A stretch of DNA of 64,000 nucleotides, from positions 219,499-283,498 of the forward strand of contig JAVCCW010000029.1 of the NCBI GenBank assembly GCA_030765235.1, written 5' to 3'. The position numbers and the translations under genes were made by a program. The stretch comes from Candidatus Gorgyraea atricola (GTDB lineage: Bacteria > Omnitrophota > Gorgyraeia > Gorgyraeales > Gorgyraeaceae). Every line of letters starts with the position of its first letter. Within the stretch, counting starts at the first letter, position 1. Below the pieces are notes generated by a model, which saw only the letters and a program-made list of their open reading frames with translations, did no database searches and had not been told where the DNA came from. Shown here piece after piece: positions 1,228 through 44,486 of this stretch.

Positions 1228-1248
1228 CAGGTAAGAGAGGAAGCTAAA

Positions 1249-2451
1249 ATGGTCACAAAAACCTTAAGAGAGAAGACGCTTGAGAAGCAGATCGCTATTC
1301 AACCAAAAGATGTAAAATTTTGCAAAAGATGTGTTATGTCAAACCAGAGACCGCGGATTGTTTTTGATGAGGAAGGGGTCTGTAGCGCATGCAGGTATGC
1401 AGATGAGAAGAAAAACACAATAGACTGGAAAACGCGAGAGAACGAATTGCTAAAACTACTGGATAAGCATCGCAGAAATGACGGTCAGTGGGATGTATTG
1501 GTGCCTTGTAGCGGAGGCAAAGATGCCTCTTATGTGGCTCATCAATTAAAGCATAGATATGGTATGCACCCTTTGACAATAACATGGGCTCCTTTGAAAT
1601 ATACTGACATAGGATTTTCTAATTTGCAAAATTTTATAAATTCCGGATTCAACAATCTTCTTGGTTCTTCAAGCGGAAAGTTACAGCGCAAGCTTGCAAG
1701 GGTGGCTTTTGAAGAAGTAGGAGATCTCTTTTTACCATTTATCTATGGACAAATGTGTTTTCCTTTTCACATGGCCTTAAGATTGGGAATAAAGCTTGTA
1801 TTTTATGGCGAAAATGGCGAAGCTGAATATGGTGGTAATCCTAAAAATAATAATAGATCATATATGCCTTTAGAAGATTGGGCAGAGGCTTATTGGAAAG
1901 GCACAGCAATAGATAATCTCATAGATTACGCGTTGAAAAACAAAGATTATTTTAGCAAAAAAGATTTTGATAGTTCGGATCTAATTTTATACCGGCCGCC
2001 ATCTATTGAAGAGCTTAAACTTGCTAACATACAGATGCATTGGTATTCTTATTATCATAAATGGATCCCCCAGGAGAACTATTATTATTCTTCACAGAAC
2101 ACAGGGTTTAAAGCTAATCCTGAGCGTTCCGAAGGAACTTATTCTAAATATGCCAGTTTAGATGATAAAACAGACGGATTTCACTATTATATGGCTTTTA
2201 TAAAATTCGGTATAGGCAGGGCAATGTCTGATGCTGCTCATGAAATCAGAGATGGGCATATTACCAGGGATGAAGGAGTCAACCTTGTAAGGCGTTATGA
2301 TGGAGAGCTTCCGAAAAAATATTTTAAGGAAACCTTGGAATATCTTGATTTAACTGAAGATGATTTTTGGAATGTTGTTGATAGTTTTAGACAGCCGCAT
2401 TTATGGGTAAAAGCAAACGGAAAATGGAAGCTGAAGCACCAAGTTTCTTAA
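1249..2451 (+). CDS. N-acetyl sugar amidotransferase (WbuX/PseA-like PP-loop ATP pyrophosphatase; acetamidino-forming)
   Basis: 400 aa. Cys-rich N-terminus CKRCVMSNQRP...CSAC and PP-loop CSGGKDAS, as in LPS/flagellin-glycan N-acetyl sugar amidotransferases. RBS AGAGAGGAAG precedes ATG 1249. Confidence 0.7.
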   Translation: MVTKTLREKTLEKQIAIQPKDVKFCKRCVMSNQRPRIVFDEEGVCSACRYADEKKNTIDWKTRENELLKLLDKHRRNDGQWDVLVPCSGGKDASYVAHQLKHRYGMHPLTITWAPLKYTDIGFSNLQNFINSGFNNLLGSSSGKLQRKLARVAFEEVGDLFLPFIYGQMCFPFHMALRLGIKLVFYGENGEAEYGGNPKNNNRSYMPLEDWAEAYWKGTAIDNLIDYALKNKDYFSKKDFDSSDLILYRPPSIEELKLANIQMHWYSYYHKWIPQENYYYSSQNTGFKANPERSEGTYSKYASLDDKTDGFHYYMAFIKFGIGRAMSDAAHEIRDGHITRDEGVNLVRRYDGELPKKYFKETLEYLDLTEDDFWNVVDSFRQPHLWVKANGKWKLKHQVS

Positions 2452-2505
2452 GAGACAAAACTATGAATTTAGGAGTTATTTGTTTGACAGGAGGCAGTGT
2501 ATTAT

Positions 2506-5493: not shown

Positions 5494-5524
5494 GGTTGTA
5501 ATTATCAATAAGGAGGGAATACTT

Positions 5525-6496
5525 ATGTTTAATAACAAAGCTGTATTAATAACAGGCGGAACAGGGTCGTTTGGAAAAAAGTTTACGGAAATAGTGCTTA
5601 AAAAATATAAGCCTAAGAAAGTAATAATTTACAGCAGGGACGAATTTAAGCAGTATGAGATGCAAAAGCATTTTAAAGAATATAAAAACATAAGATTTTT
5701 TATAGGGGATGTAAGAGACAAGGATAGGTTGCTTGTTGCTTTTCAAGGTGTTGATTTCGTAGTGCATGCTGCTGCGCTTAAGCATGTTCCTGCGATGGAA
5801 TATAATCCTGCAGAAGCAGTGAAGACTAATACCCTTGGCGCGATGAATATCATAGATGCTGCGGTAGAGCGTTGCGTAAAGAAAGTAATAGCATTAAGTA
5901 CTGATAAGGCCTGTAATCCTATCAATCTTTACGGTGCGACCAAGCTATGTTCGGATAAGTTGTTTATCGCCGGGAATGCTTATTCAGGAAAAGCAGATAC
6001 CAGATTCAGCGTTGTCAGATATGGTAATGTAATGGGGAGCAGAGGCAGTGTCATACCATTTTTTACCGAGAGCGTAAAAAGTGGAGTTATTCCGATAACA
6101 GATGATAGGATGACACGTTTCCTGATCACGCTTGAGCAATCTGTAGAGTTTGTTATCAAGTGTTTTAGCTTGATGCACGGAGGCGAACTTTTTGTGCCAA
6201 AGATTCCGAGCACGAAGATCATAGATTTAGCCAGAGCTATCGGGCCTAGATGCAAGATAAAGTCAGTCGGCATAAGACCAGGTGAGAAACTTCACGAAGT
6301 CATGGTTTCAGAAGATGATGCAAGGAATGCAATGGAATTTAAAGATTATTATATAGTAAAGCCCAGTTTTCCCTGGTGGAAAGATAAGAATCATTCGGGA
6401 GGGAAAAGAGTACCGGATGGTTTTAGGTACGCCAGTAATAATAATAAAGATTGGCTTAAGGGCGAGAGGTTAAAGAAATTTTTGAACCTGACATAA
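5525..6496 (+). CDS. pseB: Nucleotide-sugar (UDP/GDP-GlcNAc) 4,6-dehydratase, PseB/LegB/CapD family
   Basis: The MFNNKAVLITGGTGSFGKKF N-terminus matches PseB/FlmA-type short-chain dehydratases. Strong RBS AAGGAGGG upstream. It lies immediately upstream of a DegT aminotransferase. Confidence 0.8.
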   Translation: MFNNKAVLITGGTGSFGKKFTEIVLKKYKPKKVIIYSRDEFKQYEMQKHFKEYKNIRFFIGDVRDKDRLLVAFQGVDFVVHAAALKHVPAMEYNPAEAVKTNTLGAMNIIDAAVERCVKKVIALSTDKACNPINLYGATKLCSDKLFIAGNAYSGKADTRFSVVRYGNVMGSRGSVIPFFTESVKSGVIPITDDRMTRFLITLEQSVEFVIKCFSLMHGGELFVPKIPSTKIIDLARAIGPRCKIKSVGIRPGEKLHEVMVSEDDARNAMEFKDYYIVKPSFPWWKDKNHSGGKRVPDGFRYASNNNKDWLKGERLKKFLNLT

Positions 6497-6507
6497 AAGG
6501 CATAGAT

Positions 6508-7650
6508 ATGAAAAGATTTATCCCATACGCGAGACAGTCAGTGGACTCTGACGATATAAAAGCGGTTGCAGATGTTCTGAGATCTGATTATCTGACGCAA
6601 GGTCCGAAGGTGCATGAATTTGAAAAAAAGGTAGCGGACTATTGCGGCGCAAAGTATGCCGTAGCTTTGAATTCAGGCACGTCAGCTTTACATGCGGCAT
6701 GTTTTGTATCAGGCATTAAGCAGGGGGATGAGGTCATAACATCACCGATAAGTTTTGCGGCATCAAGCAATTGCGTTTTGTATTGCGGTGGTACGCCGAA
6801 ATTTGTGGATATACTTGAAGATACTATAGCGATAGATCCTTGTGAGATTCAAAAGGCAATAACAAAAAGGACAAAAGCCATCATCCCTGTGGATTTTGCA
6901 GGGCATCCTGCGGAATTGAATGAGATAAAAAGAATTGCTTCTAAGTACGGGCTTGTGGTTATAGAAGACGCTGCCCACGCGTTAGGCGCAGAGTATAGGG
7001 GTAATAAAACAGGCTGTGGAAAATATTCAGATATGACGATTTTGAGTTTTCACGCGGTAAAACATATAACCACAGGCGAAGGCGGAATGGTACTGACCAA
7101 TAGAAAAGACCTGTATGATAAATTGGTCATGTTCAGGACACATGGTATCACACGCGATAAAAAGATGCTGTTAGATAAGAATAAGCCTGAATGGTTTTAT
7201 GAGATGCAGTTTCCCGGTTTTAATTACAGGATTGCGGATATCCAGTGCGCTCTGGGATTGAGCCAGATGGAGAAACTTGATTCTTTTGTGAAAATGCGAA
7301 GAAAGATAGCAGGTTTGTATAAAGAGAGTTTCAGTGATATCAACGATATTACCTGTTTGACTGAGAGGAAATACGCTAAATCGAGCTGGCATATTTTTCC
7401 TGTGTGTATAAAGAGGAATAGGGATATGGTTTTTGACAGGCTCAGGCGCAGAGGCATAGGAGCAAATCTTCATTATATCCCGATCTATCTGCACCCGTAT
7501 TATAAAAAGTTGGGATATAAGAAAGGGCTGTGCCCTAAAGCAGAGGGGTATTATAAAAAAACAATAACCCTGCCTCTCTATCCAGTTATGTCTATTAATC
7601 AGGTTGAAAGAGTAATTAACGCTGTTAAAGATGCTGCAAATAGCTTATGA
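6508..7650 (+). CDS. pseC: DegT/DnrJ/EryC1/StrS-family PLP aminotransferase (PseC/LegC-like sugar 4-aminotransferase)
   Basis: 380 aa. Conserved stretches DYLTQGPKVHEFEKK...ALNSGTSALH...SFHAVKHITTGEGG, with the Lys of AVKHI typical of the PLP site. Confidence 0.8.
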   Translation: MKRFIPYARQSVDSDDIKAVADVLRSDYLTQGPKVHEFEKKVADYCGAKYAVALNSGTSALHAACFVSGIKQGDEVITSPISFAASSNCVLYCGGTPKFVDILEDTIAIDPCEIQKAITKRTKAIIPVDFAGHPAELNEIKRIASKYGLVVIEDAAHALGAEYRGNKTGCGKYSDMTILSFHAVKHITTGEGGMVLTNRKDLYDKLVMFRTHGITRDKKMLLDKNKPEWFYEMQFPGFNYRIADIQCALGLSQMEKLDSFVKMRRKIAGLYKESFSDINDITCLTERKYAKSSWHIFPVCIKRNRDMVFDRLRRRGIGANLHYIPIYLHPYYKKLGYKKGLCPKAEGYYKKTITLPLYPVMSINQVERVINAVKDAANSL

Positions 7651-10109
7651 AAATTTTGTTAATTAAGGATTTAATGATGGAATTAAATTCAAAACATTAC
7701 AGCTCTGTTGAAACACAAAAGCGGCCGGAATATCTCGAGTGGGCTGGTTCAAATATAGCTGATATGGCTAATGAATTTGTTCAAAAAAATAAGTTACTGG
7801 ATTCATATTTTATTAAAGGAATGAACAGGATTTTTAGAACCAGCCGTTTTGAACTTTTATTAAAAAGGTGGATAGTGGCTTATTTATGGGATTTTTTCAG
7901 CATGCTGGATGATTTTTTATCATATCATTCACAATTAAACGAGGAATTAGTTTTAGAAGACATGCCTTTAAGCAGATTTGGAATTATGAAATATTATTCC
8001 AGATTCGGTTTAATGTCTAAGATAAAATGGAAAAAACAGGCAAATTTATTGCAGAAAATTTTCAGCATTTCGCTGAAATCTTTAAGTATTTTTTATCTTA
8101 GCTTATCTAAAGGATTGAGGATATATGGGAAAAGAAAACAATACAAAGTAATGCGCGAAGCAATATGGGGCTTATATGATACTGGCGGAAATTATCTTCA
8201 CGACGATTTTTTTATAGACGACAATAAGATTAAAAAAGAAGAGTTTCTTTTATTTTCAAGAGGGATTCCTAAGGAGAAGGGCAGGCTGAAAGGATATCAT
8301 GATGCAAAAAAATCCCCTTATGCCCATTTCGATCTCTCATCCTTGCCATTAGGAATCAACTCTTTTTTATCGCGAATAATTCCTAAATATATTATTTCAG
8401 CCAGTATTGCATTATTTAAAGAAATGTATTCCAGTAACTTTTCGTTGTATTGGAGCGTTTATCTGTCTTTTATATACAGCGCCATGCCATATGAAAAAGT
8501 ATTTTCTAATTATGAGGTAGTTTCTGAGTTAGGGCATAATTATTTTTCTGCCGGTCATATTGCAGAGGCAATTATATGCGAGAATTATGGTACAAAATAC
8601 TATTTAATGCACTTGTCTGACCACGCCGTATCTATAAATAAGTTTCTATTTTCATACTTAGGGTGCGATGGTCTTTTGTTGTGGGGCAAAGCGCATGCTG
8701 AAGATGCAATAATCGATGATAAAATTTTGAAACCTATGGGGTATGTTTTTAAAAAATTTATCAAAGAGGCGATTATTAACAGAGACAAGGTTATAAACGA
8801 GATAGGCATAAAGGTAAAAGGTAAGGTAATAACTTTTTTTGACGAAAGCTTTGGCGGCAGGTGCAAGATGACAGGGGATAATTATGTAACGTTCTGGGAT
8901 ACAGCATTAAGGCTGGCGCAACAAACAGAAAGAGATAATGTCATATTGATAAAGCCCAAAGATCTATCCAGAGCGGACAATCTATCAAGAAATCTGTTAG
9001 AGAAGTTTATTGATATAAAAAATAAGCTGGAAAAGATGGAAAATGTTCGTATCATAACTTCCGATAAGTGGTCTTTTATGGAGGTTATAGGAATATCCGA
9101 TATAGTGGTGACGCAGGGCATGACCAGTTCAGCTACGATAGCTATCATTTGCGGGATTCAGGGCATGTATCTGGATCAGGCGCAATACGACCATCCATTT
9201 TCAAAGGCCTTTAAAGACGCGATAGTATTCGATAATCCAGAAAAAATACTGTTAATGATTCAAAAGATATTAATAGGCAAGGAAAACCCATTAAAAAATA
9301 TTCCGGAGGGCACGTTAAGAGCTTTTGATGAATATCAGGATGAGAGAGGCATAGACCTGTTTCGGGATATTCTGTCAGGAAAAACTCGCAGGCGCGTTGG
9401 AGTCATTATTCAGGCCAGGATGGGCTCAACCAGATTGCCGGGAAAAGCAATGAGGCCCATATTGAATAAACCAATACTGGAAATTTTAGTAGAAAGGCTG
9501 CGAAGATGCAAAAAGACAGATTTGTTGAGCATTGCTACAACGATAAATAAGAATGATGATATTATTGAGGCCTTAGCCCGCAAGCTAAAAGTGGAGTGTT
9601 TTAGAGGCGACGAGGAAGATGTACTTGGTAGATATTACGAGGCAGCTAAGAAATATGGCTTAGACATAATTGTTAGAATTACTTCAGATTGCCCTTTAAC
9701 AGATCCATCCCTGGTTGATGATGTGATAGTATATTATCTTGACAACCCACAGGTAGATTATGTGTCAAATGTTATAAACAGGACATATCCTCGGGGGTTT
9801 GATATAGAGGTGTTTAGTTTTCAAAGCTTAAAAAAGGCCTCAGAAAAAGCTGTTAAGCCGTATCAAAGGGAACATGTTACCCCTTTTATCTATGAAAATA
9901 TGGGATGTCTTAATTATGAAGACGACAGGGATTCTTCAAAATACAGAGTTACAGTAGATACAGTAGAGGACTTTGAGTTAGTTTCGGCCATATACGATAT
10001 TTTAAATAAAGGCGCTCAGTTTGGTTACAGGCAGGTTGTTGACCTGCTTGATTCAAGGCCGGATCTGGTTGCGCTTAATCAGTTTGTGGAGCAAAAAGCT
10101 GTAAAATGA
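7647..10109 (+). CDS. Fusion protein: N-terminal transferase-like domain (about 560 aa) + C-terminal SpsF/PseF-like CMP-sugar cytidylyltransferase
   Basis: C-terminal VGVIIQARMGSTRLPGKAM...ITSDCPLTDP is the PseF/SpsF signature. The N-terminal region carries a KP/HP-type segment, IKPKD...GISDIVVTQGMTSSATIAIICGIQGMYLD. This aligns with ORF 21207 (RFHPAT...GVILYTWTTVCLEALKMGCPAIYLD). The start could also be the internal Met at about 7674. Confidence 0.6.
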   Translation: MKILLIKDLMMELNSKHYSSVETQKRPEYLEWAGSNIADMANEFVQKNKLLDSYFIKGMNRIFRTSRFELLLKRWIVAYLWDFFSMLDDFLSYHSQLNEELVLEDMPLSRFGIMKYYSRFGLMSKIKWKKQANLLQKIFSISLKSLSIFYLSLSKGLRIYGKRKQYKVMREAIWGLYDTGGNYLHDDFFIDDNKIKKEEFLLFSRGIPKEKGRLKGYHDAKKSPYAHFDLSSLPLGINSFLSRIIPKYIISASIALFKEMYSSNFSLYWSVYLSFIYSAMPYEKVFSNYEVVSELGHNYFSAGHIAEAIICENYGTKYYLMHLSDHAVSINKFLFSYLGCDGLLLWGKAHAEDAIIDDKILKPMGYVFKKFIKEAIINRDKVINEIGIKVKGKVITFFDESFGGRCKMTGDNYVTFWDTALRLAQQTERDNVILIKPKDLSRADNLSRNLLEKFIDIKNKLEKMENVRIITSDKWSFMEVIGISDIVVTQGMTSSATIAIICGIQGMYLDQAQYDHPFSKAFKDAIVFDNPEKILLMIQKILIGKENPLKNIPEGTLRAFDEYQDERGIDLFRDILSGKTRRRVGVIIQARMGSTRLPGKAMRPILNKPILEILVERLRRCKKTDLLSIATTINKNDDIIEALARKLKVECFRGDEEDVLGRYYEAAKKYGLDIIVRITSDCPLTDPSLVDDVIVYYLDNPQVDYVSNVINRTYPRGFDIEVFSFQSLKKASEKAVKPYQREHVTPFIYENMGCLNYEDDRDSSKYRVTVDTVEDFELVSAIYDILNKGAQFGYRQVVDLLDSRPDLVALNQFVEQKAVK

Positions 10110-11026
10110 AAATAGTTATTATTACTGAAGGCGGAAGAAACGTAGGATTTGGGCATATAACCCGTTGTTTAGGATTGCGCTCAGAACTTGAGAAGAAAAG
10201 AATAGAAGTTTGTTTCATAATAAATGATGATGTTAACGCAGCAGAAAAGATAAAAGGCAAGAATTTCAAAATATATAAAAATAATGAGGATATATTAAGA
10301 TTAGTTAGAGGATCTGATTGCGCGATAGTCGATTCATATATATTAAACAAAGATGTTTATTTGGAAATCAAGAATTCAGTACGGCTTCTGGTCTCTATAG
10401 ATGACAATAAAAGAATAGAATATCCACCTGGGATGGTTTTGAACGGAGCTGTTTACGCAAAAGACATGGGTTTTATAGAATCAGATGGTATAACTTATTT
10501 ACTTGGTCCGGAATTCATGCCTATGCGGCAGGAATTTGTTAATATAGATAAAAAGAGCACAAAAGAAAACATCGAAAATATCCTTATTTCTTTTGGAGGC
10601 ACTGATTTTAAAAATATGACATCTAAAGTAAAAGATTTTACATCAAAGATATTTCCTGATGCAACTATAAATACAATAGAAGGAGATAAGAAAATCGACT
10701 ATGTTTTAAGACTGATGCAGGAGGCTGATATTGCTATTTCTGCGGGAGGTCAGACCCTTTATGAACTTGCAAGAGTAGGGACTCCTGCTCTTGGTGTGTG
10801 TGTTGCAGATAATCAGCTTAATAATTTAAAAGGGTGGGAAAAGATAGGTTTTTTAAAATTTTGCGGCTGGTATAACTTCGAGAATCTGTTTAAAAATATA
10901 GAAGATGCTTTATTGCATGTCACGAGTAAAGTAGTAAGGAAAGAAATGAAAAAATCAGGGCAGTCCCTTATTGACGGCAGAGGCGCAAAAAGGGTTGCTG
11001 AAAAAATAATAGGAGCATTAAATTGA
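10106..11026 (+). CDS. pseG: PseG/SpsG-like UDP-sugar hydrolase (UDP-2,4-diacetamido-2,4,6-trideoxy-altropyranose hydrolase family)
   Basis: MKIVIITEGGRNVGFGHITRCLGL N-terminus, i.e. the GxGHxxR motif of PseG/SpsG. It lies between the PseF-like and PseI-like genes. ATGA overlap with the upstream gene. Confidence 0.65.
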   Translation: MKIVIITEGGRNVGFGHITRCLGLRSELEKKRIEVCFIINDDVNAAEKIKGKNFKIYKNNEDILRLVRGSDCAIVDSYILNKDVYLEIKNSVRLLVSIDDNKRIEYPPGMVLNGAVYAKDMGFIESDGITYLLGPEFMPMRQEFVNIDKKSTKENIENILISFGGTDFKNMTSKVKDFTSKIFPDATINTIEGDKKIDYVLRLMQEADIAISAGGQTLYELARVGTPALGVCVADNQLNNLKGWEKIGFLKFCGWYNFENLFKNIEDALLHVTSKVVRKEMKKSGQSLIDGRGAKRVAEKIIGALN

Positions 11027-12078
11027 AGACTATTAGAATAGGAAATAGAACCATAGGAGAAGGCCATCCTTGTTTTATTATTGCTGAGGCAGGAAGCAAT
11101 CATGATAGAGAACTGGAGCAGGCATTTAAGCTCATAGATATCGCAAAGGATGCCGGAGCTGATGCCGTTAAATTCCAGACTTACAGCGCCGAGACTCTTT
11201 ATTCCAAGAAGACCCCAAAGCCGGAATATTTAAGGAATAAAAATCTAAGCAGCAGAGATGAAACCTTATGGGATGTGATAAAAAAAATAGAAATGCCCAG
11301 GGAATGGCATATCAAACTTAAACAGTATTGTTTAAAAAGAGACATTATTTTTATGTCAACGCCTTTTGACTTGAAAGCCGTGGATGAGCTTGAGGCCGTG
11401 GATATTTTAGCGTATAAAATAGCTTCTTTTGAGATAACCCACTTGCCTTTGCTCGAGAAAGTTGGAAAAACAGGAAAACCGGTCATCTTGTCAACGGGGA
11501 TGGCCGATATATCTGATATTAAAGATGCTTTAGATATTATTTATAAGACCGGGAATAAACAAGTAGCATTATTACATTGTGCAATAAATTATCCTCCAAG
11601 ATATGAAGATCTGCACCTGAGGGCCATGGATACTATGAAAGAGATTTTTAAAGTGCCTGTAGGATTCTCAGATCATACTTTAGGTATAACTTCTGACATA
11701 GCCGCTGTTGCCAGAGGCGCGTGTATCATAGAGAAGCATTTTACCCTGGACAGAAAACTTCAAGGGCCTGACCATCCGTTTGCTTTGGAACCGCAGGAAC
11801 TGAAAGATATGGTAGGGGCTATAAGGGATACTGAAAAATTTCTCGGTTCTCCTGAAAAGAAAAAGACTGAATCAGAAGAGGAATTATATCGGATAGGGAG
11901 GCGAAGCCTTGTGGCGGCCTGTAATATCCCTAAAGGTGTAAAAATAACCCGTGAGATGCTTGAAGTTAAAAGGCCTGGTTACGGCATAGCGGTAAAATCA
12001 ATGAATGAATTGATAGGACGGGTTGCCGCGAAAAACATAGAAGAAGACGATATTCTGCAATGGGAGATGTTTTCTTAA
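11023..12078 (+). CDS. pseI: N-acetylneuraminate/pseudaminate synthase family (NeuB/PseI)
   Basis: TIGEGHPCFIIAEAGSNH...KFQT match the NeuB-family N-terminus. It starts with TTG at 11023, 7 nt after RBS AGGAG; the protein N-terminus only aligns with this start. Confidence 0.8.
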   Translation: MKTIRIGNRTIGEGHPCFIIAEAGSNHDRELEQAFKLIDIAKDAGADAVKFQTYSAETLYSKKTPKPEYLRNKNLSSRDETLWDVIKKIEMPREWHIKLKQYCLKRDIIFMSTPFDLKAVDELEAVDILAYKIASFEITHLPLLEKVGKTGKPVILSTGMADISDIKDALDIIYKTGNKQVALLHCAINYPPRYEDLHLRAMDTMKEIFKVPVGFSDHTLGITSDIAAVARGACIIEKHFTLDRKLQGPDHPFALEPQELKDMVGAIRDTEKFLGSPEKKKTESEEELYRIGRRSLVAACNIPKGVKITREMLEVKRPGYGIAVKSMNELIGRVAAKNIEEDDILQWEMFS

Positions 12079-12546
12079 ATGACGGATTTAGTGCTTAGAA
12101 AAATAGAACAGTCTGACAGGGAAGATCTTTTTTCGTGGAGAAATGATAAAACCACAAGAGGGATGAGTTTTAATAAAAATTACATAAGCATCGAAAAACA
12201 CAATATATGGTTCGAAAGGGTAATTGCAGATTCTAACAGGGTATTTTATATAGGAGAGATCAAGCCGCATCGAAAAATAGGTGTCATTCGTTTTGATAAG
12301 ACCAAAGAGGGTTGTTATGAGATAAGTATAAATCTGGCATTGCAGTACCGCGGACAAGGATTAGGGAAGGTGTTTATAAGAGAAGCATGCATCAAGCTCA
12401 TAAACGAAAAGACCGTGAAAGAGATCGCTGCTTCAGTAAAGACAGAAAATACTTCTTCTGTGAAATCTTTTAATAATGCAGGTTTTACTAAGATAGAAGA
12501 AAAAAATGGTGTGACAAAGATGCATTTTTCAGGAGAAACAGCATGA
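12079..12546 (+). CDS. pseH: GNAT N-acetyltransferase (PseH-like)
   Basis: 155 aa. Acetyl-CoA binding motif QYRGQGLGK in a GNAT fold. Position directly after the synthase matches the pse/sps operon logic. Confidence 0.65.
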   Translation: MTDLVLRKIEQSDREDLFSWRNDKTTRGMSFNKNYISIEKHNIWFERVIADSNRVFYIGEIKPHRKIGVIRFDKTKEGCYEISINLALQYRGQGLGKVFIREACIKLINEKTVKEIAASVKTENTSSVKSFNNAGFTKIEEKNGVTKMHFSGETA

Positions 12547-12851
12547 TAGGAGTAATAGACTACGGCATGGGGAATATTCAGTCGGTTATAAATGCCTTTG
12601 CTGAAAAGGCAATCGGAAAGATTAGTTATGGCTTGACTATCGCAGAAAGAAAAAGTCGTATTTTTAGACGTTCTTTGTTCGCTGTCAAGGATATCAAAAG
12701 AGGAGAAACTTTTTGTTATGATAATATAAGATCTATCAGGCCTGGCCTCGGCCTTAAACCGAAATATTTAGAATATTTTTTAGACAAATGTGCAAAAAGA
12801 GATATAAAAAGAGGGACACCTTTAAACTGGAATCTTCTGAGGAGAAAATGA
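12543..12851 (+). pseudogene. Chimeric remnant: HisH-like glutamine amidotransferase N-terminus fused in-frame to the C-terminal SAF domain of a NeuB-family synthase
   Basis: The first ~19 aa, MIGVIDYGMGNIQSVINAF, is the canonical HisH/WbuY start. The last ~65 aa, FAVKDIKRGETFCYDNIRSIRPGLGLKPKYLEYFLDK...KRGTPLNWNLL, is the antifreeze-like SAF domain found at the C-terminus of NeuB/PseI/LegI synthases. The ORF is only 102 aa. Confidence 0.5.
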
Positions 12852-14650
12852 AATATAAACAATTAAAAACAATTGCATTCTTTTTGAAAAATTATAAAAG
12901 CTATATTTTTGGCATTTTAATATGCTCCGCATTATACGCTATTTTTGAAGGTTTAAATATAGCAGTTTTATTTCCTATTATAAATTCTGTAATAAAAGAC
13001 GGTATGGCCACAGGAGAAGGGTCTAAGATCATACAGTTTCTTAATTTACTAATATCTGTCGTACCTGCCAAAGATACATTTATATCAGCTTGTATTATTG
13101 TGGTAGCCATCGTAATTTTAAAAAATATATTCAGGTATTTATATATGGGGTTAAACGCCTTTGCAAGTTATAAAATTTGGGATGATGTTCAAAAGAGATT
13201 ATTTTATAATTATATAAACGCTGATTACAGGTATTTTTTAGGGCATAAGCAGGGCGAGATTGTGTATAGGGTTTTTAGCGCTCCTTCGGAATTGGGCAGC
13301 GTTTTAAAGCTTATACCACAGTTAGCCACTGAGATATTAAAGATTTTTTTCATAATTATGATATTATTTTCTATGTCATTTCCAGTAAGCTGCGCTGTAG
13401 TTATTATCGGAGGAATTTTTTACTTTTTTACTAGGAATATTTCCAGAAAGATTTCATATTCTATAGGCATAGGACGCGTAAAGGCAACAGAAGAACAGAG
13501 TATTTTGTTAAACGAGATGATAAACGGCATAAAGCAGATAAAGCTATTTTTAGGCGAAAGAAGATGGATATCCGGATTTCATGGGGCGATGAATAAGTAT
13601 TTTAAATTAGCGAAAAAGGATACTCTATGGATTAACATGCCTGTAAGCGCGTTAGAGATATTCGCAATCAGCGCATTAGGCATATCTTTAATAATCGTAA
13701 AGGAATTTTCTCCTCAGAGTTTGGTTTCGAATTTGCCTCTTCTTGGCGTTTTTGCCTATGCATTCCAAAGAGTTATGCCATCCTTGAGTCTTATAACAAG
13801 TATGAAAATGCAGATCATGGGCAGTCTCGCTGTATTTGAAACACTTTATTCAGTAAGCAACGAGAAGATGACATATTTAGAAGATGGCACAAGATGCATG
13901 AGTTCATTTAATGAGAAAATAGAATTTCGTAGTGTTTCTTTTTCATATCCGGACCGGTCAGAAGTATTAAAAGATATTTCTGTGTCTTTTGACAAGAATA
14001 GATGCATAGCCATAGTCGGCCAGTCTGGTTCCGGCAAAACGACCATAGTGAATTTACTTGCGAGGCTGTTTGACCCTACAAAAGGGGCTATTTTAGTCGA
14101 TGGTGTTGACCTCAGAGAATATAAAAAGACTACCTGGCTAAGCAGGATTGGTTTTGTAAGCCAGGATACATTTATATTTCATGCGTCCGTTAAAGAAAAT
14201 ATAATATTTGGATTTGAAGGAGCAAAAGAAGAAGATGTTATAAAGTCTGCAATGATATCAAATGCGCATGATTTTATTATGAAGCTTCCTGATGGATATG
14301 ATACAGTTGTCGGAGAGAAAGGCATGAAGTTATCAGGAGGAGAACAGCAGCGCCTTTCTATAGCAAGGGCTATATTGCGGAATCCTCAGATCTTGATATT
14401 TGATGAAGCCACCAGCGCTCTGGACAATATGTCACAATCGTTGATACAGGGTTCTATAAATAAGATAGTGAAGGATCATACGGTTATTTTAATAGCTCAT
14501 AGGTTAAGTACCATTGTTAATGCCGATAAAATAGTTGTTTTGGATAATGGGATAGTCAAGGAAGAAGGAAATCATTCTGAATTGATAAACAAAAGAGGGT
14601 ATTATTCAAAATTATATAAAAGAGAAGACGATTGTATTCCTGCAACATAA
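12848..14650 (+). CDS. ABC exporter, fused permease-ATPase (MsbA/PglK-like; candidate lipid-linked glycan flippase)
   Basis: N-terminal 6-TM region, then Walker A GQSGSGKTT, signature LSGGEQQR and Walker B ILIFDEATSALD. ATG at 12848 follows GGAG and overlaps the upstream stop. Confidence 0.85.
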   Translation: MKYKQLKTIAFFLKNYKSYIFGILICSALYAIFEGLNIAVLFPIINSVIKDGMATGEGSKIIQFLNLLISVVPAKDTFISACIIVVAIVILKNIFRYLYMGLNAFASYKIWDDVQKRLFYNYINADYRYFLGHKQGEIVYRVFSAPSELGSVLKLIPQLATEILKIFFIIMILFSMSFPVSCAVVIIGGIFYFFTRNISRKISYSIGIGRVKATEEQSILLNEMINGIKQIKLFLGERRWISGFHGAMNKYFKLAKKDTLWINMPVSALEIFAISALGISLIIVKEFSPQSLVSNLPLLGVFAYAFQRVMPSLSLITSMKMQIMGSLAVFETLYSVSNEKMTYLEDGTRCMSSFNEKIEFRSVSFSYPDRSEVLKDISVSFDKNRCIAIVGQSGSGKTTIVNLLARLFDPTKGAILVDGVDLREYKKTTWLSRIGFVSQDTFIFHASVKENIIFGFEGAKEEDVIKSAMISNAHDFIMKLPDGYDTVVGEKGMKLSGGEQQRLSIARAILRNPQILIFDEATSALDNMSQSLIQGSINKIVKDHTVILIAHRLSTIVNADKIVVLDNGIVKEEGNHSELINKRGYYSKLYKREDDCIPAT

Positions 14651-14669: not shown

Positions 14670-15443
14670 ATGAAAAATCTGAAAGAAAGATTAAGGAACG
14701 GCGAAATGGTTATCGGGACATGGAACGGCATACCGTCGGCTTCGGTCGTAAATGCAATAGCTTCAAGCGGAGTAGATTTTATAGTCATTGATTCTGAACA
14801 TGGCCCGGTCAGCGTAGAAAAGGCCGAAGACCTTGTAAGGGCATGTGAAGCATGCGGAGTGGATTCGATTATTCGGGTTTCCTCGAATAGCGCCGATCTT
14901 ATTTTAAGAGCGCTTGATATAGGGACTAAAGGAGTTCAGGTCCCCCATGTTTCTACTAAAGAAGAAGCAGAGCATGTTGTCAGATGTTCGAAATATTATC
15001 CCGAAGGAGAAAGAGGGTATTCCCCTTTTACAAAAGCAGGTAATTATGGGATCAAATCTTCGGGTCATGCAAAAAGATCTAACGAAAACACCACGGTAGT
15101 TCTTAATATAGAAGGTTCCGAAGGATTGAAAAACATTAAGGATATAGCTAGTGTTCGTGGAATAGATGTAATATTTATAGGACCATACGATCTTTCGCAG
15201 TCGTTAGGAAAACCTGGAGAGGTAAATGATCCAGAAGTTATTAAGGGTATCCGTGAAAGCGTTAAAATAACTAAAAATAAAGGCGTTGCCTGCGGTTCAT
15301 TTGCTTGTGACATGAAATACATGGAATTGCTGATCGATTGCGGAGTGCAATATGTGACATATATGGTAGATTCTGCTTTGATTGCTGCTACTTATAAAGA
15401 TATAGTAAACGTATTCAATGCAAAAAAAGAAATAGAGGGGTAA
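14670..15443 (+). CDS. HpcH/HpaI-family class II (pyruvate) aldolase
   Basis: 257 aa. MKNLKERLRNGEMVIGTW...DFIVIDSEHGP matches the 2-keto-3-deoxy-acid aldolase family (HpcH/GarL/YfaU). Confidence 0.75.
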   Translation: MKNLKERLRNGEMVIGTWNGIPSASVVNAIASSGVDFIVIDSEHGPVSVEKAEDLVRACEACGVDSIIRVSSNSADLILRALDIGTKGVQVPHVSTKEEAEHVVRCSKYYPEGERGYSPFTKAGNYGIKSSGHAKRSNENTTVVLNIEGSEGLKNIKDIASVRGIDVIFIGPYDLSQSLGKPGEVNDPEVIKGIRESVKITKNKGVACGSFACDMKYMELLIDCGVQYVTYMVDSALIAATYKDIVNVFNAKKEIEG

Positions 15444-17174
15444 ATGAGCGATATTAAAACTCATGCTTTTGAGATATTGGATTGTACCATAAGAGACGGT
15501 GGCTATTTAAACAACTGGGATTTTGACAGAAAAGTGGTTAAAGAGCTTTGCCGCAATCTTTCCAGGACAGGTGTGGATATTATTGAAATCGGATTCAGAA
15601 ATAAGCCAAAGGCCGGTACGGGATTATGGTATTCTGTCCCTGAGGATGTTATCAATGATTTGTTCAAGGATGTTTCAGGAATAAAAGTATCATTGATGGT
15701 TGATTGCGACAAATGCGACTTATCTCTTATTCCGCAGTCAAAGCATAGTTTTGTAAATATGTACAGGGTGGCATGTCATAAGGATAAGATATTAGAGGCA
15801 ATCGATATTTGCCGGAAGATCAAAAAAAGAGGATATGAAGTTTCTATTCAGCTAATGGGGATTGTGGGTTATACGGAGGAAGATTTTTCTTTTATAAAGA
15901 AGCCTATTTCAGAATCATCAATTGACTATCTTTATTTTGCCGATAGCTATGGTTCGCTTTTTCCGCGTGATATAGAAAGATATATAGAAAAGTTGAAACC
16001 TCTGAATAAAAAAATAGGTTTTCATGCGCACAATAGTCTCCAGCTTGCTTTTGCCAATACACTGGAGGCGCTTAATTGCGGAGTGGATATAGTAGATGGT
16101 ACTGTATGCGGTATGGGAAGGGGATCAGGTAACCTCCCTATGGAAGTGTTGATAATATACCTTGAGAAAACATTAAGCCGTAAAAAGTACAATTCAATGC
16201 CTGTATTGGATCTTATAGACCGTTATTTTATTGATCTAAAAAACAAGTTGAAATGGGGTTACAGCCTTCCTTACATGTTATCCGGTATATTCGAGGTCCA
16301 TCCGAGCTATGCCAAGCAATTGATAGATTATCATGAATACAATGTAGACGATATGGTAAAAGTCTTTGAGGTCGTAAAAGGACTTGCGCCAGTGGGATTT
16401 AAAAAAGACATAATGGATAAAATTATATCAAGCGGTTTTGTAAGCTCTTTTGGTAAATCGGAAAATCCAGACCATGATACAGAAGATAATCTACGAATAC
16501 AGCCACCTCTTTATAGAAACAGGCATGAGGGAAAGGATTTTTTGATACTTGCTAATGGTCCCAGCCTTAAAGAGCATAAAAAAGAAATAGATGAATTTAT
16601 AGAAAAATATAATCCTGTAGTTATGGGTGCTAATTATTTAGGTGGATTGTTTAAGCCGCATTATCATGCATTTAGCAATAAGAAACGATTTATCAATTAT
16701 GTTGAACATGTTGATGTGGATTCAAAGCTTCTGATATCCGGCAGTTTCGAGGATGATTTTATAAAAGACTATACGAATATGGAATATGAAAGTATCGCGC
16801 ATTTTAGTGGCACCTCGGATAATTTCAGGATAGAAGATGGCGTAATCAATTCAAATTGCAGGACCGTGTCGATATTGTTGACGGCAGTCGCTATTGTTAT
16901 GGGCGCAAAAAGAATATTCATAGCAGGAATGGATGGATATAAGAGTAAAGAACATTTTCTTTCAAAAAATGTACATTTTTATAAAGAATCCGAGGAAGCT
17001 GATAATTTTAAACTATTGATCGAAAAGCACAATTGGAATGAAAAACTACTTAGCCAGATCAATTCGTTTTTAATTGAAAACAACAAAGAAGGGCTTCATA
17101 TTATAACCCCTTCAAGTCATAGTTATTTTTACAGCAGTATATATAATTGGATAAAACAATATGACAAGGTTTGA
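15444..17174 (+). CDS. Fusion: HMGL-like DRE-TIM metallolyase domain + GT42/MptE(DUF115)-like sialyltransferase-fold domain
   Basis: The N-terminus ILDCTIRDGGYLNNWDF...HAHNSLQLAFANTLEAL is typical of the HMGL-like/4-hydroxy-2-oxovalerate aldolase family. The C-terminal segment DFLILANGPSLKE...RTVSILLTAVAIVMGAKRIFIAGMDGY resembles Campylobacter Cst-II/Maf-type GT42 domains (IIAGNGPSLKE...AVAIALGYKEIYLSGIDFY). Confidence 0.55.
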   Translation: MSDIKTHAFEILDCTIRDGGYLNNWDFDRKVVKELCRNLSRTGVDIIEIGFRNKPKAGTGLWYSVPEDVINDLFKDVSGIKVSLMVDCDKCDLSLIPQSKHSFVNMYRVACHKDKILEAIDICRKIKKRGYEVSIQLMGIVGYTEEDFSFIKKPISESSIDYLYFADSYGSLFPRDIERYIEKLKPLNKKIGFHAHNSLQLAFANTLEALNCGVDIVDGTVCGMGRGSGNLPMEVLIIYLEKTLSRKKYNSMPVLDLIDRYFIDLKNKLKWGYSLPYMLSGIFEVHPSYAKQLIDYHEYNVDDMVKVFEVVKGLAPVGFKKDIMDKIISSGFVSSFGKSENPDHDTEDNLRIQPPLYRNRHEGKDFLILANGPSLKEHKKEIDEFIEKYNPVVMGANYLGGLFKPHYHAFSNKKRFINYVEHVDVDSKLLISGSFEDDFIKDYTNMEYESIAHFSGTSDNFRIEDGVINSNCRTVSILLTAVAIVMGAKRIFIAGMDGYKSKEHFLSKNVHFYKESEEADNFKLLIEKHNWNEKLLSQINSFLIENNKEGLHIITPSSHSYFYSSIYNWIKQYDKV

Positions 17175-18162
17175 AATAGCACAAGAGCTGTTAAACAAAA
17201 AGAAATTCTTTAAGCTTGTTTGCGGCGCAGGTAACGAAGACGCAAAGGAAGTCAGGAAGATTGTTTTTGTCTATGCGCTTGCAGGCGCCAAATGCATGGA
17301 TGTCTCTGCCAATGTGGATGTTGTTAAACATGCAGCCATAGGTATTCAGGATGCATTTGATTATGCAGGCAAGATAGGAAGGCAGTTATTGATACGTCCT
17401 TTTATCAATGTGAGCATAGGAATGAGGGGAGACCCGCATATTAGGAAAGCGATGATTACAGATAAGTGCGTTAAATGCAGAGTATGTATTGCAGAGTGCC
17501 CTACAAATGCCATAGATGATGACTTTAAGATCATAGAGGCCAGGTGCATAGGATGCGGAAGTTGCGAGTCAGCGTGTAGCTATAACGCTATAAAATTCTA
17601 CCATAAGAATAAGGACTTAAAAGCTATTCTGGAGGAATGCAGGGAATGCGGGGTTGAGCAGATGGAGTTGCACGCTGCAGTGCCTGATACAAGGTCTATA
17701 TTCGACGAATGGAAAATGATAAACAATATAATAAAAGATAATTATGTAAGCATGTGCTTGGACCGCCTGCATTTATCCGATTCTGCGTTGAAACGCAGGA
17801 TAAAAAATGCAAAGTCTATATCAGGCAACAGGCTTATAGTGCAGGCAGACGGCGTGCCCATGAGTGGAAGCAAGGATGATTTCAATACCACTCTGCAGGC
17901 GGTTGCCATTGCGGATATAATCATGAAACAAAGGTTAGATGTAAAGGTTTTACTGTCAGGCGGTACAAATAGTTTGACTACAAAATTAGCGGATATGAGC
18001 GGCGTTGCATATAATGGTGTCTCTGTCGGAACGTTTGCCAGAAATGTTATAAAGGAATTGATCGGGGAAGAAGATTTTATGAAAAAGGACGATAAAGTGA
18101 GAGAGGCGGTTAATACCGCGCATACATTAGTAAGGAGTAATATCGGAGAGGTAGTCTGGTAA
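17161..18162 (+). CDS. Protein with 2x[4Fe-4S] ferredoxin-type domain inserted in an alpha/beta (possibly TIM-like) scaffold
   Basis: Two CxxCxxCxxxCP-type motifs, CVKCRVCIAECP and CIGCGSCESAC. The flanking regions have no recognisable family. Confidence 0.55.
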   Translation: MTRFEIAQELLNKKKFFKLVCGAGNEDAKEVRKIVFVYALAGAKCMDVSANVDVVKHAAIGIQDAFDYAGKIGRQLLIRPFINVSIGMRGDPHIRKAMITDKCVKCRVCIAECPTNAIDDDFKIIEARCIGCGSCESACSYNAIKFYHKNKDLKAILEECRECGVEQMELHAAVPDTRSIFDEWKMINNIIKDNYVSMCLDRLHLSDSALKRRIKNAKSISGNRLIVQADGVPMSGSKDDFNTTLQAVAIADIIMKQRLDVKVLLSGGTNSLTTKLADMSGVAYNGVSVGTFARNVIKELIGEEDFMKKDDKVREAVNTAHTLVRSNIGEVVW

Positions 18163-18926
18163 TGGTGAATATTGCGTTTGGCAATAAGGTAATCAATGAT
18201 ATTGAGTTATTTGTATTCGATAAGGATGGCACACTCATTGATTTATATAATTACTGGTATTACATGATTGAGATGCGGGCAAAAGATTTGTGTTCTTTTT
18301 ACAAGTTGGATGAGGAGCCGCATAAGAATAGTCTGATGTCTGAGATGGGGATTAATTTGGAAAAGAGAAGGCTGAAACCAGAAGGTCCTGTGGGCATTTT
18401 ACCCAGGGCGATTGTGCAAAAGGCTGCAGAGGATTATCTCGTTAAGCTTGACTACCAGGATGTCTCCAGGGTTTGCTTTGATATATTTAAGAAAGTCGAT
18501 GATAAGTCTTTATTCTTATTGGACAAACTTATAGTCCCTATCAAAGGTGCTATGGAACTTTTAAAGAATATAAAAGAGAAAAAGACTATGGTCGCCATAG
18601 CGACAACTGATAAAACAGAGAGAGCTGAACTTGCTGTAAAATTTTTAAATATAGGAAACTTAGTGGATATTGTCGTGGGCGAAGATAAGGTGAAAAATTC
18701 AAAACCAGCACCAGATATGTTGATGTATATACTGAAGAAACTTGATGTATCTCCGCGCAATTCTATCATGGTAGGAGATGCGAACACTGATGTCCTGATG
18801 GGCAAAAACGCAAACCTAAAGGCCTCAATAGGCGTCTGCACTGGGCTGACAAATAAGGATAAATTGCTAGAAATAACCCCTTATGTAGTTGATGATGTAT
18901 CGAAGATAAAAATATATGACAGCTAA
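18162..18926 (+). CDS. HAD-superfamily hydrolase (phosphatase, subfamily IA-like)
   Basis: Motif I VFDKDGTL and motif IV VGDANTDVLMG. Confidence 0.7.
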   Translation: MVNIAFGNKVINDIELFVFDKDGTLIDLYNYWYYMIEMRAKDLCSFYKLDEEPHKNSLMSEMGINLEKRRLKPEGPVGILPRAIVQKAAEDYLVKLDYQDVSRVCFDIFKKVDDKSLFLLDKLIVPIKGAMELLKNIKEKKTMVAIATTDKTERAELAVKFLNIGNLVDIVVGEDKVKNSKPAPDMLMYILKKLDVSPRNSIMVGDANTDVLMGKNANLKASIGVCTGLTNKDKLLEITPYVVDDVSKIKIYDS

Positions 18927-20469
18927 TAAAGAGATAATACTTGTTAATTTACCTCCGGCTAGGAATTATAAGTATGAGAATTCCGGTTCTCTGTATCCTG
19001 CTACCGGGATAATGGTAATAGGTGCGATATTAAAGAAAAGAAAGTTTTCAGTAAAGATCGTTGACGGCGCCTTGATTCAGGAATATGAAAAAAGGGTTTT
19101 GGAGAGCATATCCGAGAGGACTATGTTCGTGGGGTTTTCAGCCATGACTTCCCAGATAGTCATGGGATATGAGCTGGCAAAGAAGATAAAAGAGAAATGG
19201 CCTCGTTTATATATAGTATTTGGCGGTGTGCACTCAACCCTGTATCCTGAACAAACGGTCTCTAATCCGTATATTGATATTGCCGTGATCAACGAAGGGT
19301 CTAGAACTGTTTTAGAGATCATAGAGCATATTGAAGGACATGTCCAATTGGAGGCAATAAAAGGCATATCGTTTTGTGATTCAGAGGGCAATGTTAAGAT
19401 TAATATACCCAGGGATTTGGATGATATATCAGAGATTCCCCATTTTGATTTTGAACTCTTGGATTTGCCGAGATATCTTAATGCCAGAAGCGTATATGAA
19501 AGAGAATTAAACCTTGATGGCAGTAAGAATATACGACTAATGCCTATTCTTACTGGCTTAGGCTGTTGTTTTAGGTGCGCCTTTTGCATAAACGTGATTT
19601 TAAAAAGGCATTACAGAGCGCGTTCTGCCGCATCCATTGTCGAAGAGATCAAAAGATTGCAGTCCAGATATGGCGCAAATGCCTTTTTATTCCTGGACGA
19701 AGATTTTTGTATTAACAAAAAAAGACTGGCAGACTTCATTAAACTGGCAAAGGACGAGAATATCAAGTTTTTGGCAAGGATATGGGCCAGGGTCTCTTAT
19801 TTCAGGCAGGATTCTTTCAAGAATATTTTGCCGGATATGGAAAAGATCGGTATAAAATCTATTGCAATGGGGGCAGAAAGCGGATCACAGAAGATGCTGG
19901 ATTATTTACATAAGGATATAAAATGCGAAGACATAAAGAACGCTGCTGTGGAGCTTTCCAAATTCAATATAACCCCGAGATTTTCCTTTATGACAGGGAT
20001 GGACGGAGAAAATAAAGATGATACCATCTCCACGTACAGGCTTTGCGGAGAACTATTAAAGATCAATCCCATCACTGACATTGCAGGCCCTTTCACTTTC
20101 CGTTATTATCCAGGTTCTCCCATATTTAACCAGGGTATGAAGAGGTTTAATATAAGCTTAAGTAAATCTATAGAAGACTGGAAGGATTCCTTGAATGATG
20201 ACGGATCTTTGATTGTTGACACCACCCGGCTTATCTGGCCCGGGTTTTCCAAATACAGCGAATCAATGAATAGTTATATCAATATTTATTTGCATAAGTT
20301 GAATAGGCTGTCATTGCGTAATAGATTTTTGGTCAAGATTATCAGAAAACTAGTCTTGTGGCGATTGATGCACGGAGAACACTGTTATGCTATAGATTAT
20401 TACACCCTTCGTTTATTGGCAAAACTTGAAACTTTTTTACTAAAACTGTATCGTAGTATTTATAAATGA
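18916..20469 (+). CDS. B12-binding radical SAM enzyme (class B radical SAM, candidate C-methyltransferase or rearrangement enzyme)
   Basis: N-terminal B12-binding-like domain (IVFGGVHSTLYPEQ), then radical SAM cluster motif CCFRCAFC (CxxxCxxC). Confidence 0.8.
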   Translation: MTANKEIILVNLPPARNYKYENSGSLYPATGIMVIGAILKKRKFSVKIVDGALIQEYEKRVLESISERTMFVGFSAMTSQIVMGYELAKKIKEKWPRLYIVFGGVHSTLYPEQTVSNPYIDIAVINEGSRTVLEIIEHIEGHVQLEAIKGISFCDSEGNVKINIPRDLDDISEIPHFDFELLDLPRYLNARSVYERELNLDGSKNIRLMPILTGLGCCFRCAFCINVILKRHYRARSAASIVEEIKRLQSRYGANAFLFLDEDFCINKKRLADFIKLAKDENIKFLARIWARVSYFRQDSFKNILPDMEKIGIKSIAMGAESGSQKMLDYLHKDIKCEDIKNAAVELSKFNITPRFSFMTGMDGENKDDTISTYRLCGELLKINPITDIAGPFTFRYYPGSPIFNQGMKRFNISLSKSIEDWKDSLNDDGSLIVDTTRLIWPGFSKYSESMNSYINIYLHKLNRLSLRNRFLVKIIRKLVLWRLMHGEHCYAIDYYTLRLLAKLETFLLKLYRSIYK

Positions 20470-43868: not shown

Positions 43869-43880
43869 AAAATATTAATC

Positions 43881-44486
43881 ATGAAAAAGACTATTTTTCA
43901 AATAATATATGATTTTATATGCATGCCGTTTCGTTTAGTCCTTTTGCCGGACAGTATCTGCGAAAGGCTTGGCTTGACATCATTGCGGCAGGAACGCGTA
44001 TTTAATGTATTGCCGCATGTCAAAGGCAGGCTGATTGATATAGGATGCGGAGATAATATGCTGGTAAATATCTATTCTAATGGCTTAGGCGTTGATAACC
44101 GAGATTTAGGAAAAGGAGCTGTTATAATAAAGAATGTTGCCAATTTACCCTTCGAAGATCATACCTTTGATACAGTGACTTTTGTGGCTTCTTTGAATCA
44201 TATAGTTTCCAGAAAAGAGGCCTTGAGTGAGGCAAGGCGTTTATTGAAGCCGGACGGAAGACTTATTGTAACAATGATAGGGCCTATAATAGGAGCAATA
44301 GCGCATTTATTATGGTGGTATAGTGAAGATAAGCATCGAGGGGGCATGAAGAATGGAGAGGTAGGAGGCATGACTACCAAAGAGATACTGCGTTTATGTC
44401 TTGGGGCCGGATTCCAATTAAAAGAACATCAGAGGATCGTATACAAGATGAACAACATATATATCTTCGAATTGAAAAACGCGTAG
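43881..44486 (+). CDS. Class I SAM-dependent methyltransferase
   Basis: LIDIGCGDN...LKPDGRLIV. Confidence 0.65.
   Translation: MKKTIFQIIYDFICMPFRLVLLPDSICERLGLTSLRQERVFNVLPHVKGRLIDIGCGDNMLVNIYSNGLGVDNRDLGKGAVIIKNVANLPFEDHTFDTVTFVASLNHIVSRKEALSEARRLLKPDGRLIVTMIGPIIGAIAHLLWWYSEDKHRGGMKNGEVGGMTTKEILRLCLGAGFQLKEHQRIVYKMNNIYIFELKNA

Follow-up and report, generated by a model that had tools for sequence, protein, structure and literature searches.

The window analysed here, a stretch of 64,000 nucleotides from Candidatus Gorgyraea atricola of the phylum Omnitrophota, contains a single co-directional gene cluster for nonulosonic acid biosynthesis (nt 58–14650) and, within it, a chimeric open reading frame (ORF) of 102 codons that begins with ATG (12543..12851; this and all other features of the window described below lie on the plus strand). 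The ORF fuses, in frame, the first codons of a gene for a HisH-type glutamine amidotransferase to the last quarter of pseI, the gene for a pseudaminic acid synthase. The fusion is true; it is neither an assembly artefact nor a conserved gene. In our judgement, at a probability of roughly 0.55, it is the scar of a one-step exchange between two kinds of biosynthetic cassette, termed type A and type B below, in which the start of hisH was run into the end of pseI. The window belongs to a metagenome-assembled genome (MAG): an NCBI protein of the same organism, on a 404-kb contig, matches the encoded PseH with 100% identity, and the type MAG of the species has its source in Ace Lake, Antarctica (PMC8542988).

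The two halves of the chimera

The first 19 codons (12543..12599; MIGVIDYGMGNIQSVINAF) encode the N-terminal β-strand and GxGN motif of a class I glutamine amidotransferase of the HisH/WbuY type. When the N-terminal 22 residues were searched in isolation, only 2 of 18,950 NCBIfam models matched, both of them HisH models and both over model positions 1–19 (E = 4.8e-4 and 1.9e-3). The alignment is in register from model position 1 and begins at the ORF's own Met. A local profile of 22 columns was also constructed from nine HisH N-termini of other pse loci and used to score 7,355 ORFs from the window and those loci. The chimera reached 33.5 bits, and the best non-HisH ORF after it 9.5 bits. By these profiles, residues 1–19 are a HisH N-terminus, well above chance. 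It has to be considered that the ORF might be a 5'-truncated pseI whose first 19 codons resemble HisH by accident, given that the match is short (E = 0.0077 within the full ORF) and that a single-sequence phmmer search of the PDB with the 22-residue peptide, which is too weak at this length, did not find HisH. Such a coincidence is nonetheless most improbable, as HisH models are the only ones that match, they do so in register, and 24 bits separate the chimera from the next of the 7,355 ORFs.

The remainder of HisH is missing. Against the full HisH/GATase domain (∼200 residues; TIGR01855, NF010608) the chimera scores 18–20 bits, where the cutoffs are 105 and 216, and the Pfam GATase family (PF00117) has no match in it. 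The catalytic Cys-His-Glu is absent from the fragment, which keeps 19 of about 205 HisH residues (∼10%).

Codons 20–102 and the stop codon (12600..12851) correspond to residues 270–352 of the 352-residue PseI of locus L012, an Omnitrophota relative, and thus to the linker and SAF domain. Residues 20–94 align with positions 253–327 of the 327 positions of the PseI model TIGR03586 (E = 8.6e-22; 77.7 bits, with a cutoff of 340.25), and the NeuB_NnaB model fits less well (E = 3.7e-10). The Pfam SAF family (PF08666) covers residues 42–100 over its entire profile (positions 1–63 of 63; E = 2e-10; 41.5 bits against a cutoff of 21). The top solved structure by sequence is Campylobacter jejuni PseI (8h2c, residues 268–343, E = 4.6e-15), which is also the closest solved relative by predicted fold, with 41% identity in the structural alignment. 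Identity to the PseI C-termini of Omnitrophota and Nitrospirae amounts to 60–66%, against about 28–30% for the C-termini of the L083 and L089 synthases, which are close homologs of the intact synthase encoded nearby in the window. These values place the SAF part with canonical PseI in particular. The remnant is free of stops and frameshifts. Among 77 PseI C-termini, 14 columns are conserved at ≥90% and 38 at ≥70%; the remnant keeps all 14 of the former and 36 of the latter. No NeuB TIM barrel (PF03102) was detected in the chimera by Pfam, and only 24% of PseI is left; lacking the barrel, the remnant is therefore not a synthase.

The junction occupies codons 19–21 (TTT GCT GAA; 12597..12605), as placed by the PseI alignments, the tblastn edge at 12600 and the left edges of the top matches. 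HisH likeness stops at Phe19 (12597–12599), and PseI likeness begins at Ala20/Glu21 (Glu21 being 12603–12605), with AEKAIGK in the multiple alignment. In a HMMER search of 1.84 billion representative proteins, nearly all of the best 150 of 2124 matches start at or after query residues 19–20, and residues 1–5 are never aligned; these left edges therefore fix the left limit of the PseI homology.

An earlier note on this DNA, written from the letters and the ORF translations, had described an in-frame hisH'–'synthase chimera and deletion scar, and the HisH profiles together with the PseI and SAF models confirm the chimera and the scar. Its view that a second NeuB-family synthase gene is mostly lost is borne out as well, about three quarters being gone. 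It had assigned the C-terminal domain to NeuB, PseI or LegI in general; the SAF domain stands, and the assignment narrows to canonical PseI.

Reality and distribution of the fusion

An identical junction is present in the metagenome assemblies ERZ27315536 and ERZ27315522, on contigs of 627 and 641 nt that differ from the window by a single-nucleotide polymorphism (SNP) only. The polymorphic site is position 12544, which is T in the window and in one contig (L001) and C in the other (L002, position 84). The C allele changes the chimera ATG to ACG and the pseH stop TGA to CGA (Arg), shifting the stop by 3 nt and extending PseH by one residue. The occurrence of this allele in one population sample suggests that the start of the chimeric ORF is dispensable. 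Because the source is a MAG and the supporting contigs are short, a faulty assembly or binning of two unrelated contigs might be suspected. We regard this as very improbable, since three assemblies have the identical junction, one of them with its own SNP, the join is in frame, and both flanks are syntenic with relatives.

The same architecture was not met elsewhere. In 80 loci of GTDB species-representative genomes only the PseI part was matched, and neither 127 word-indexed protein matches nor the best 150 of the 2124 representative matches contained the fusion; among those matches, the only one to span the whole ORF is a copy of it from another metagenome, 100% identical. A conserved full-length mini-gene, which the earlier note had set against its own reading, was thus not found beyond identical copies of the ORF itself. 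No undeleted allele was recovered, exact-sequence look-ups with the window's synthase, ABC protein and PseH having yielded no further contigs.

Two candidates for a conserved SAF-only mini-gene on long contigs were rejected. In L171 (4216–5267 of an 88-kb contig) a frameshift, whether a sequencing error or a real pseudogene, splits pseI into ORFs of 268 and 88 residues, and this split gene explains some 'SAF-only' database proteins. The other, in L172 (contig of Logan SRR28113958; 4493–5240), is an independent, decayed pseudogene derived from a canonical-type pseI. Stop codons and frameshifts interrupt it, and approximately residues 125–230 are deleted internally. It lies directly after pseH, and another, intact NeuB-family synthase gene adjoins pseG in the same locus. 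A third NeuB-SAF domain of L172 forms part of a fusion with an amine-oxidase/GLF-type protein (from 8562).

A mosaic of two kinds of relatives

The right side of the fusion corresponds to type B. Its representative, L012, is an Omnitrophota MAG locus that encodes a CMP-transferase, a protein of unknown function, PseB, PseC, an 818-residue PseF fusion, PseG, a methyltransferase, PseI and an ATP-binding cassette (ABC) exporter. The pseF fusions of L012 and the window are 65% identical, the PseG proteins 35%, and the end of L012 PseI is 63% identical to the remnant. The L012 PseI is intact, with 352 residues, and is encoded directly 5' of the ABC gene, whose start overlaps the pseI stop (ATGA) in the same way as the ABC start and the chimera stop overlap in the window. 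It is a canonical PseI, scoring 298 bits to 8h2c versus 170 to SpsE. In L008, an intact orthologous PseI of 347 residues is encoded in the same cluster with two genes between it and the ABC gene; it shares 60% identity with the remnant and 67% with L012 PseI. On sequence and gene order, the remnant is to be taken as the positional ortholog of the intact L012 PseI. The ABC exporter gene of the window (12848..14650) has its ATG in the overlap with the chimera stop, and a start at 12848 is backed by the ABC proteins of L012, L083 and L089, which align from residue 1. The pseB gene of L012 (2880–3790) is in two ORFs (141 and 156 residues), by a frameshift or an assembly error.

The left side corresponds to type A. 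The relatives of this type, the metagenome contigs L083–L090, have the order PseG, synthase, PseH, WbuX-type gene and ABC, and both hisH and a second synthase are absent from them. In the window the type A cassette consists of pseG (10106..11026), which matches the PseG model and is 70% identical to its L083/L089 counterparts against 35–37% to those of L012 and L008; the intact NeuB-family synthase gene (11023..12078), whose product has NeuB and SAF domains, belongs to an SpsE-like clade and is 85–88% identical to the L083/L089 synthases; and the gene for a PseH-type GNAT acetyltransferase (12079..12546; TIGR03585, E = 4e-13; 62–68% identity to L083/L089/L090). The ABC proteins of these relatives are 64–70% identical to that of the window. 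The window thus joins type A genes on the left to type B on the right, with the hisH fragment at the seam. Divergence of PseG was rejected as evidence of cassette replacement, since any two of the three PseG proteins (window, L012, L008) share about 35–37% identity.

A second, left breakpoint lies within the pseF fusion gene (7647..10109), whose product of 820 residues has a C-terminal cytidylyltransferase domain (PF02348). A maximum chi-square test places it approximately at residue 697 (9735..9741). Over residues 1–696 the window shares 140 informative sites with L012 and 67 with L083, and over residues 697–820 the counts are 8 versus 27; the maximum chi-square of 25.3 was reached in 0 of 2000 permutations. 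Together with the gene-content pattern, this breakpoint suggests one recombination tract over the interval ∼9735–12599.

The pseF fusion is kept at full length in L012 (65% identity) and L083 (58%). Its N-terminal ∼580 residues gave only a weak match to TIGR04417, a polysaccharide biosynthesis PFTS-motif family (E = 3e-4), and the cytidylyltransferase C-terminus presumably acts as PseF.

Proposed origins: cassette exchange or deletion

In the exchange that we favour, a type A tract comprising the 3' end of pseF, pseG, the SpsE-like synthase gene, pseH and the start of hisH would have displaced resident type B genes; the canonical pseI, located 5' of the ABC gene, would have lost its first three quarters to it. 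The mechanism would be homology-facilitated illegitimate recombination. A homologous crossover in pseF, within its conserved 3' part, would have anchored the incoming DNA, and the other end of that DNA would have been joined illegitimately, hisH codon ∼19–20 of the incoming DNA to pseI codon ∼270 of the resident. The join may be in frame by luck, or may have been kept because it was in frame, and the fragment would have inherited the ribosome-binding site and start codon of hisH and the stop codon of pseI. The type A cassette carries its own synthase, by which pseudaminic acid synthesis would have been kept, and intact hisH and hisF may never have been present in the lineage of the window. On this account pseI would be the 'loser', cut down to its last domain, and the scar one of an ordinary, well-known kind.

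We infer the direction, number and mechanism of these events from comparative patterns, and several points weigh against the account. The donor arrangement that would supply the 57-nt hisH piece is hypothetical: hisH stands right after pseH in no sampled locus, and the three closest relatives have WbuX there. The breakpoint test compares three taxa at about 55–65% identity and does not polarise the recombining lineage, and rate variation along the pseF fusion could contribute to its signal. Other backbone genes favour neither relative clearly (L012 versus L083: PseB 77/81%, PseC 71/72%), and the GC profile of the window has no discontinuity. A microhomology at the junction is possible, going by family consensus, in which Glu is common here on both parental sides. 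The absence of any decay in the remnant fits a very recent event or selection on the product equally.

The same scar is predicted by a two-step history, in which an ancestor with two synthases carried hisH and hisF between pseH and a canonical pseI and then suffered an in-frame deletion of ∼2 kb or more. The deletion would have taken out hisH for the most part, hisF entirely, anything else in between, and pseI up to codon ∼269. WbuX would have been deprived of its glutamine-dependent ammonia supply, for an acetamidino modification, and the locus of a redundant PseI. Several observations accord with such a history: the hisH' start seems natively coupled to pseH through the ATGA overlap and AGGAG, two-synthase pse loci exist, with the canonical-type copy decaying in L172, and trios of WbuX, HisH and HisF occur in sampled pse loci. 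It requires, however, one more event than the exchange, as its two-synthase intermediate would itself need recombination, and no intermediate of this kind was met among the sampled loci. Moreover, the trios have hisH in another place, the closest relatives normally have WbuX without clustered HisH and HisF, and the corollary of two nonulosonic acids is contradicted by the finding that both synthases are of pse-cluster types. We hold the two-step history to be possible but less likely than the exchange. The simple deletion of the earlier note thus survives in the scar itself and as this possible second step, but the mosaic and the pseF breakpoint admit another explanation, which is probably better. 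The comparison with syntenic loci that the note had proposed gave an intact pseI at the same position in L012, but hisH–hisF after pseH in no sampled locus.

Ammonia-supplying partners of WbuX

A HisH/HisF pair normally supplies ammonia to a WbuX-type amidotransferase. The window encodes such an enzyme, an N-acetyl sugar amidotransferase of WbuX type that is PseA-like (1249..2451; TIGR03573, 347.8 bits, cutoff 203.2), and the earlier note had pointed to the absence of intact partners beside it. No intact HisH or HisF was indeed found within the 64-kb window by tblastn with queries from L026 and L045 and from T. maritima. The note's premise that WbuX depends on clustered partners is weak: seven of the sampled pse loci do contain WbuX–HisH–HisF trios, which are thus common there, always with hisH after WbuX and never after pseH, but WbuX occurs without HisH or HisF nearby in L010, in L113 and in the closest type A relatives, L083, L089 and L090. 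As these closest relatives carry WbuX alone, the missing HisH and HisF are therefore no evidence of a crippled WbuX. In C. jejuni NCTC 11168, homologues of hisF and hisH lie, together with pseA, between pseH and pseI, an order that would accord with the two-step history. A literature search found no work on WbuX/WbuY/WbuZ, and the literature on pseA with hisH held no direct statement on HisH/HisF partners.

The window WbuX gene separates the NeuC gene from that of a CBS-nucleotidyltransferase, and these two genes adjoin directly in L083 (1–1563). The WbuX gene of L083 (10471–11607), located between pseH and the ABC gene where the window has the chimera, encodes a protein 32% identical to the window WbuX. 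A second, weaker WbuX-like ORF of the window (42094–43191; 146.9 bits, under the 203.2 cutoff) lies among a radical S-adenosylmethionine (SAM)/SPASM gene and several consecutive genes for SAM methyltransferases (40435–47399).

The intact synthase and completeness of the pathway

The intact synthase scores 408 bits on the NCBIfam NeuB model (cutoff 399.65) and 338.4 bits on the PseI model, just under the cutoff of 340.25; its nearest PDB relative is Bacillus subtilis SpsE. Among 80 metagenome loci with a synthase of this clade, other pse genes are present in 64, PseG is encoded directly upstream in 29 and PseH directly downstream in 32, and a second synthase is found in 2. Since members of this clade usually have no second synthase beside them in pse clusters, the product of 11023..12078 is most likely a working pseudaminic acid synthase, and its automatic naming as an N-acetylneuraminate synthase is probably wrong. 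By gene content, the pse pathway (PseB, PseC, PseH, PseG, synthase and PseF) still looks complete. It would appear that two alternative PseI types, both of them pse-cluster types, met in one locus. The proposal of the earlier note that the ancestral locus made two nonulosonic acids fails on this ground, the lost synthase being a canonical PseI and the intact clade pse-type as well, and its proposal that one route was partly lost is at odds with a pathway that looks complete with the type A synthase.

Expression and possible function of the product

A Shine-Dalgarno-like AGGAG (12531..12535) is located 7 nt 5' of the chimera ATG, inside the 3' end of pseH; this is a plausible ribosome-binding site of the sort the earlier note had asked after. 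The chimera ATG overlaps the pseH stop, and the chimera stop overlaps the ABC start, in each case as ATGA. No plus-strand terminator was found at 9.5–15.5 kb, where the counts of the promoter and terminator scan were at chance level. The chimera is probably transcribed within the operon and translated. An AlphaFold2 model gave predicted local distance difference test (pLDDT) values of 87–97 for residues 41–100, the SAF domain, and disorder is predicted for residues 1–30. The predicted product would thus be a disordered tail of ∼30 residues followed by an isolated SAF domain. We favour the view that it is a neutral by-product without a catalytic function of its own, because it occurs in a single species, has one start-less allele and a disordered N-terminus, and contains no catalytic parts. 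At most, the ORF may help to keep translation coupled into the ABC gene.

The SAF domain of NeuB and PseI is a separate domain that contributes to the active site of the partner subunit. This contribution gives some ground for supposing that the fusion was kept by selection, as a small SAF protein that binds sugar or acts as a synthase partner, or as a coupling ORF for the ABC gene. The in-frame fusion, the good ribosome-binding site, the stop/start overlaps on both sides, the intact conserved SAF residues and the prediction that the domain folds alone, with the pLDDT values given above, would all accord with selection. We nevertheless think it unlikely: the ORF is confined to one species, no small homolog with this N-terminus exists among the 1.84 billion representatives, and one population variant has no ATG. 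An in-frame outcome has a chance of 1 in 3, and a recent event explains the lack of decay. The still bolder proposal of a newborn gene, in which a stand-alone SAF domain with a hisH start would have taken on a new role in sugar or ice binding or in regulating the neighbouring synthase or exporter, has in our view only a slim chance of being right. If true, bacteria would offer a parallel to the way in which fish type III antifreeze proteins (AFPs) arose from sialic acid synthase.

Other genes of the cluster and its surroundings

The cluster opens with the gene of the NeuC-type epimerase (from 58), and downstream of WbuX it continues with the genes for the CBS-nucleotidyltransferase (from 2497), a cytidylyltransferase (from 3591), a protein of unknown function (from 4273), PseB (from 5525) and PseC (from 6508). 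On the 3' side of the ABC gene, the window (14670–20469) encodes an HpcH-type aldolase, an HMGL-like/MptE-like fusion, a ferredoxin/LdpA-like protein, an HAD hydrolase and a B12-binding radical SAM enzyme. The corresponding side of L083 (13371–17289) encodes ATP sulfurylase, APS kinase and a sulfotransferase. From these genes 3' of ABC, sugar decoration probably differs between the lineages of the window and of L083.

Comparison with known systems

The fusion provides an example of glycan cassette swapping in the uncultivated phylum Omnitrophota, clean and dated by its context. It also bears on annotation: the 102-residue 'SAF domain protein' is a remnant, and missing HisH and HisF beside WbuX do not alone show that a pathway is broken. 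It raises no new biological question unless the fragment proves functional.

The C-terminal domain of sialic acid synthase gave rise to the fish type III AFPs, and the chimera resembles them in that an SAF/AFP-like domain has come free of its NeuB-family parent synthase and acquired a new N-terminus. The predicted SAF fold superposes on AFP III with a target TM-score of ∼0.8 and a root-mean-square deviation of 1.3 Å over 60 residues, as any C-terminal domain of the NeuB family should. The host of the chimera comes from an Antarctic lake, which deserves mention but is no evidence of function. In contrast to the likeness of fold, identity to the AFPs is only 12–18%, about that of any PseI or NeuB C-terminal domain. 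The chimera shows no signal peptide, amplification or conservation, and nothing points to ice binding.

With canonical PseI (TIGR03586; C. jejuni 8h2c) the last 83 residues align end to end, although the chimera lacks the catalytic NeuB TIM barrel. The decayed pseI of L172 is likewise a canonical-type gene 3' of pseH that degenerates beside another intact NeuB-family synthase gene, but its two ends are preserved, an internal stretch is deleted, stops are numerous, and no other gene is fused to it. With the WbuX/WbuY/WbuZ modules of acetamidino-sugar pathways (TIGR03573) the locus shares an intact WbuX and, in hisH', the N-terminus of the glutaminase subunit. It differs in having no HisF, and the closest relatives indicate that the module is not obligatory in the lineage of the window.

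Homology-facilitated illegitimate recombination has been described in the naturally transformable bacteria Acinetobacter baylyi and Streptococcus pneumoniae. The proposed exchange would share with it a homologous anchor, here the 3' part of pseF, a block of foreign DNA and an illegitimate junction that deletes resident DNA; here, by contrast, the process is deduced from comparative patterns only. There is a likeness, too, to the gene remnants of surface-polysaccharide and glycosylation loci, such as O-antigen, capsule and flagellin-glycosylation islands, where a hypervariable interval lies between conserved flanks (here pseB/pseC/pseF and the ABC gene), alternative gene sets are non-orthologous, and a truncated gene marks the place where the sets meet. 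What sets the present case apart from those remnants is that two fragments are fused in frame with their translation signals intact, that one apparent crossover falls inside a pathway gene, and that the host is an uncultivated member of the Omnitrophota.

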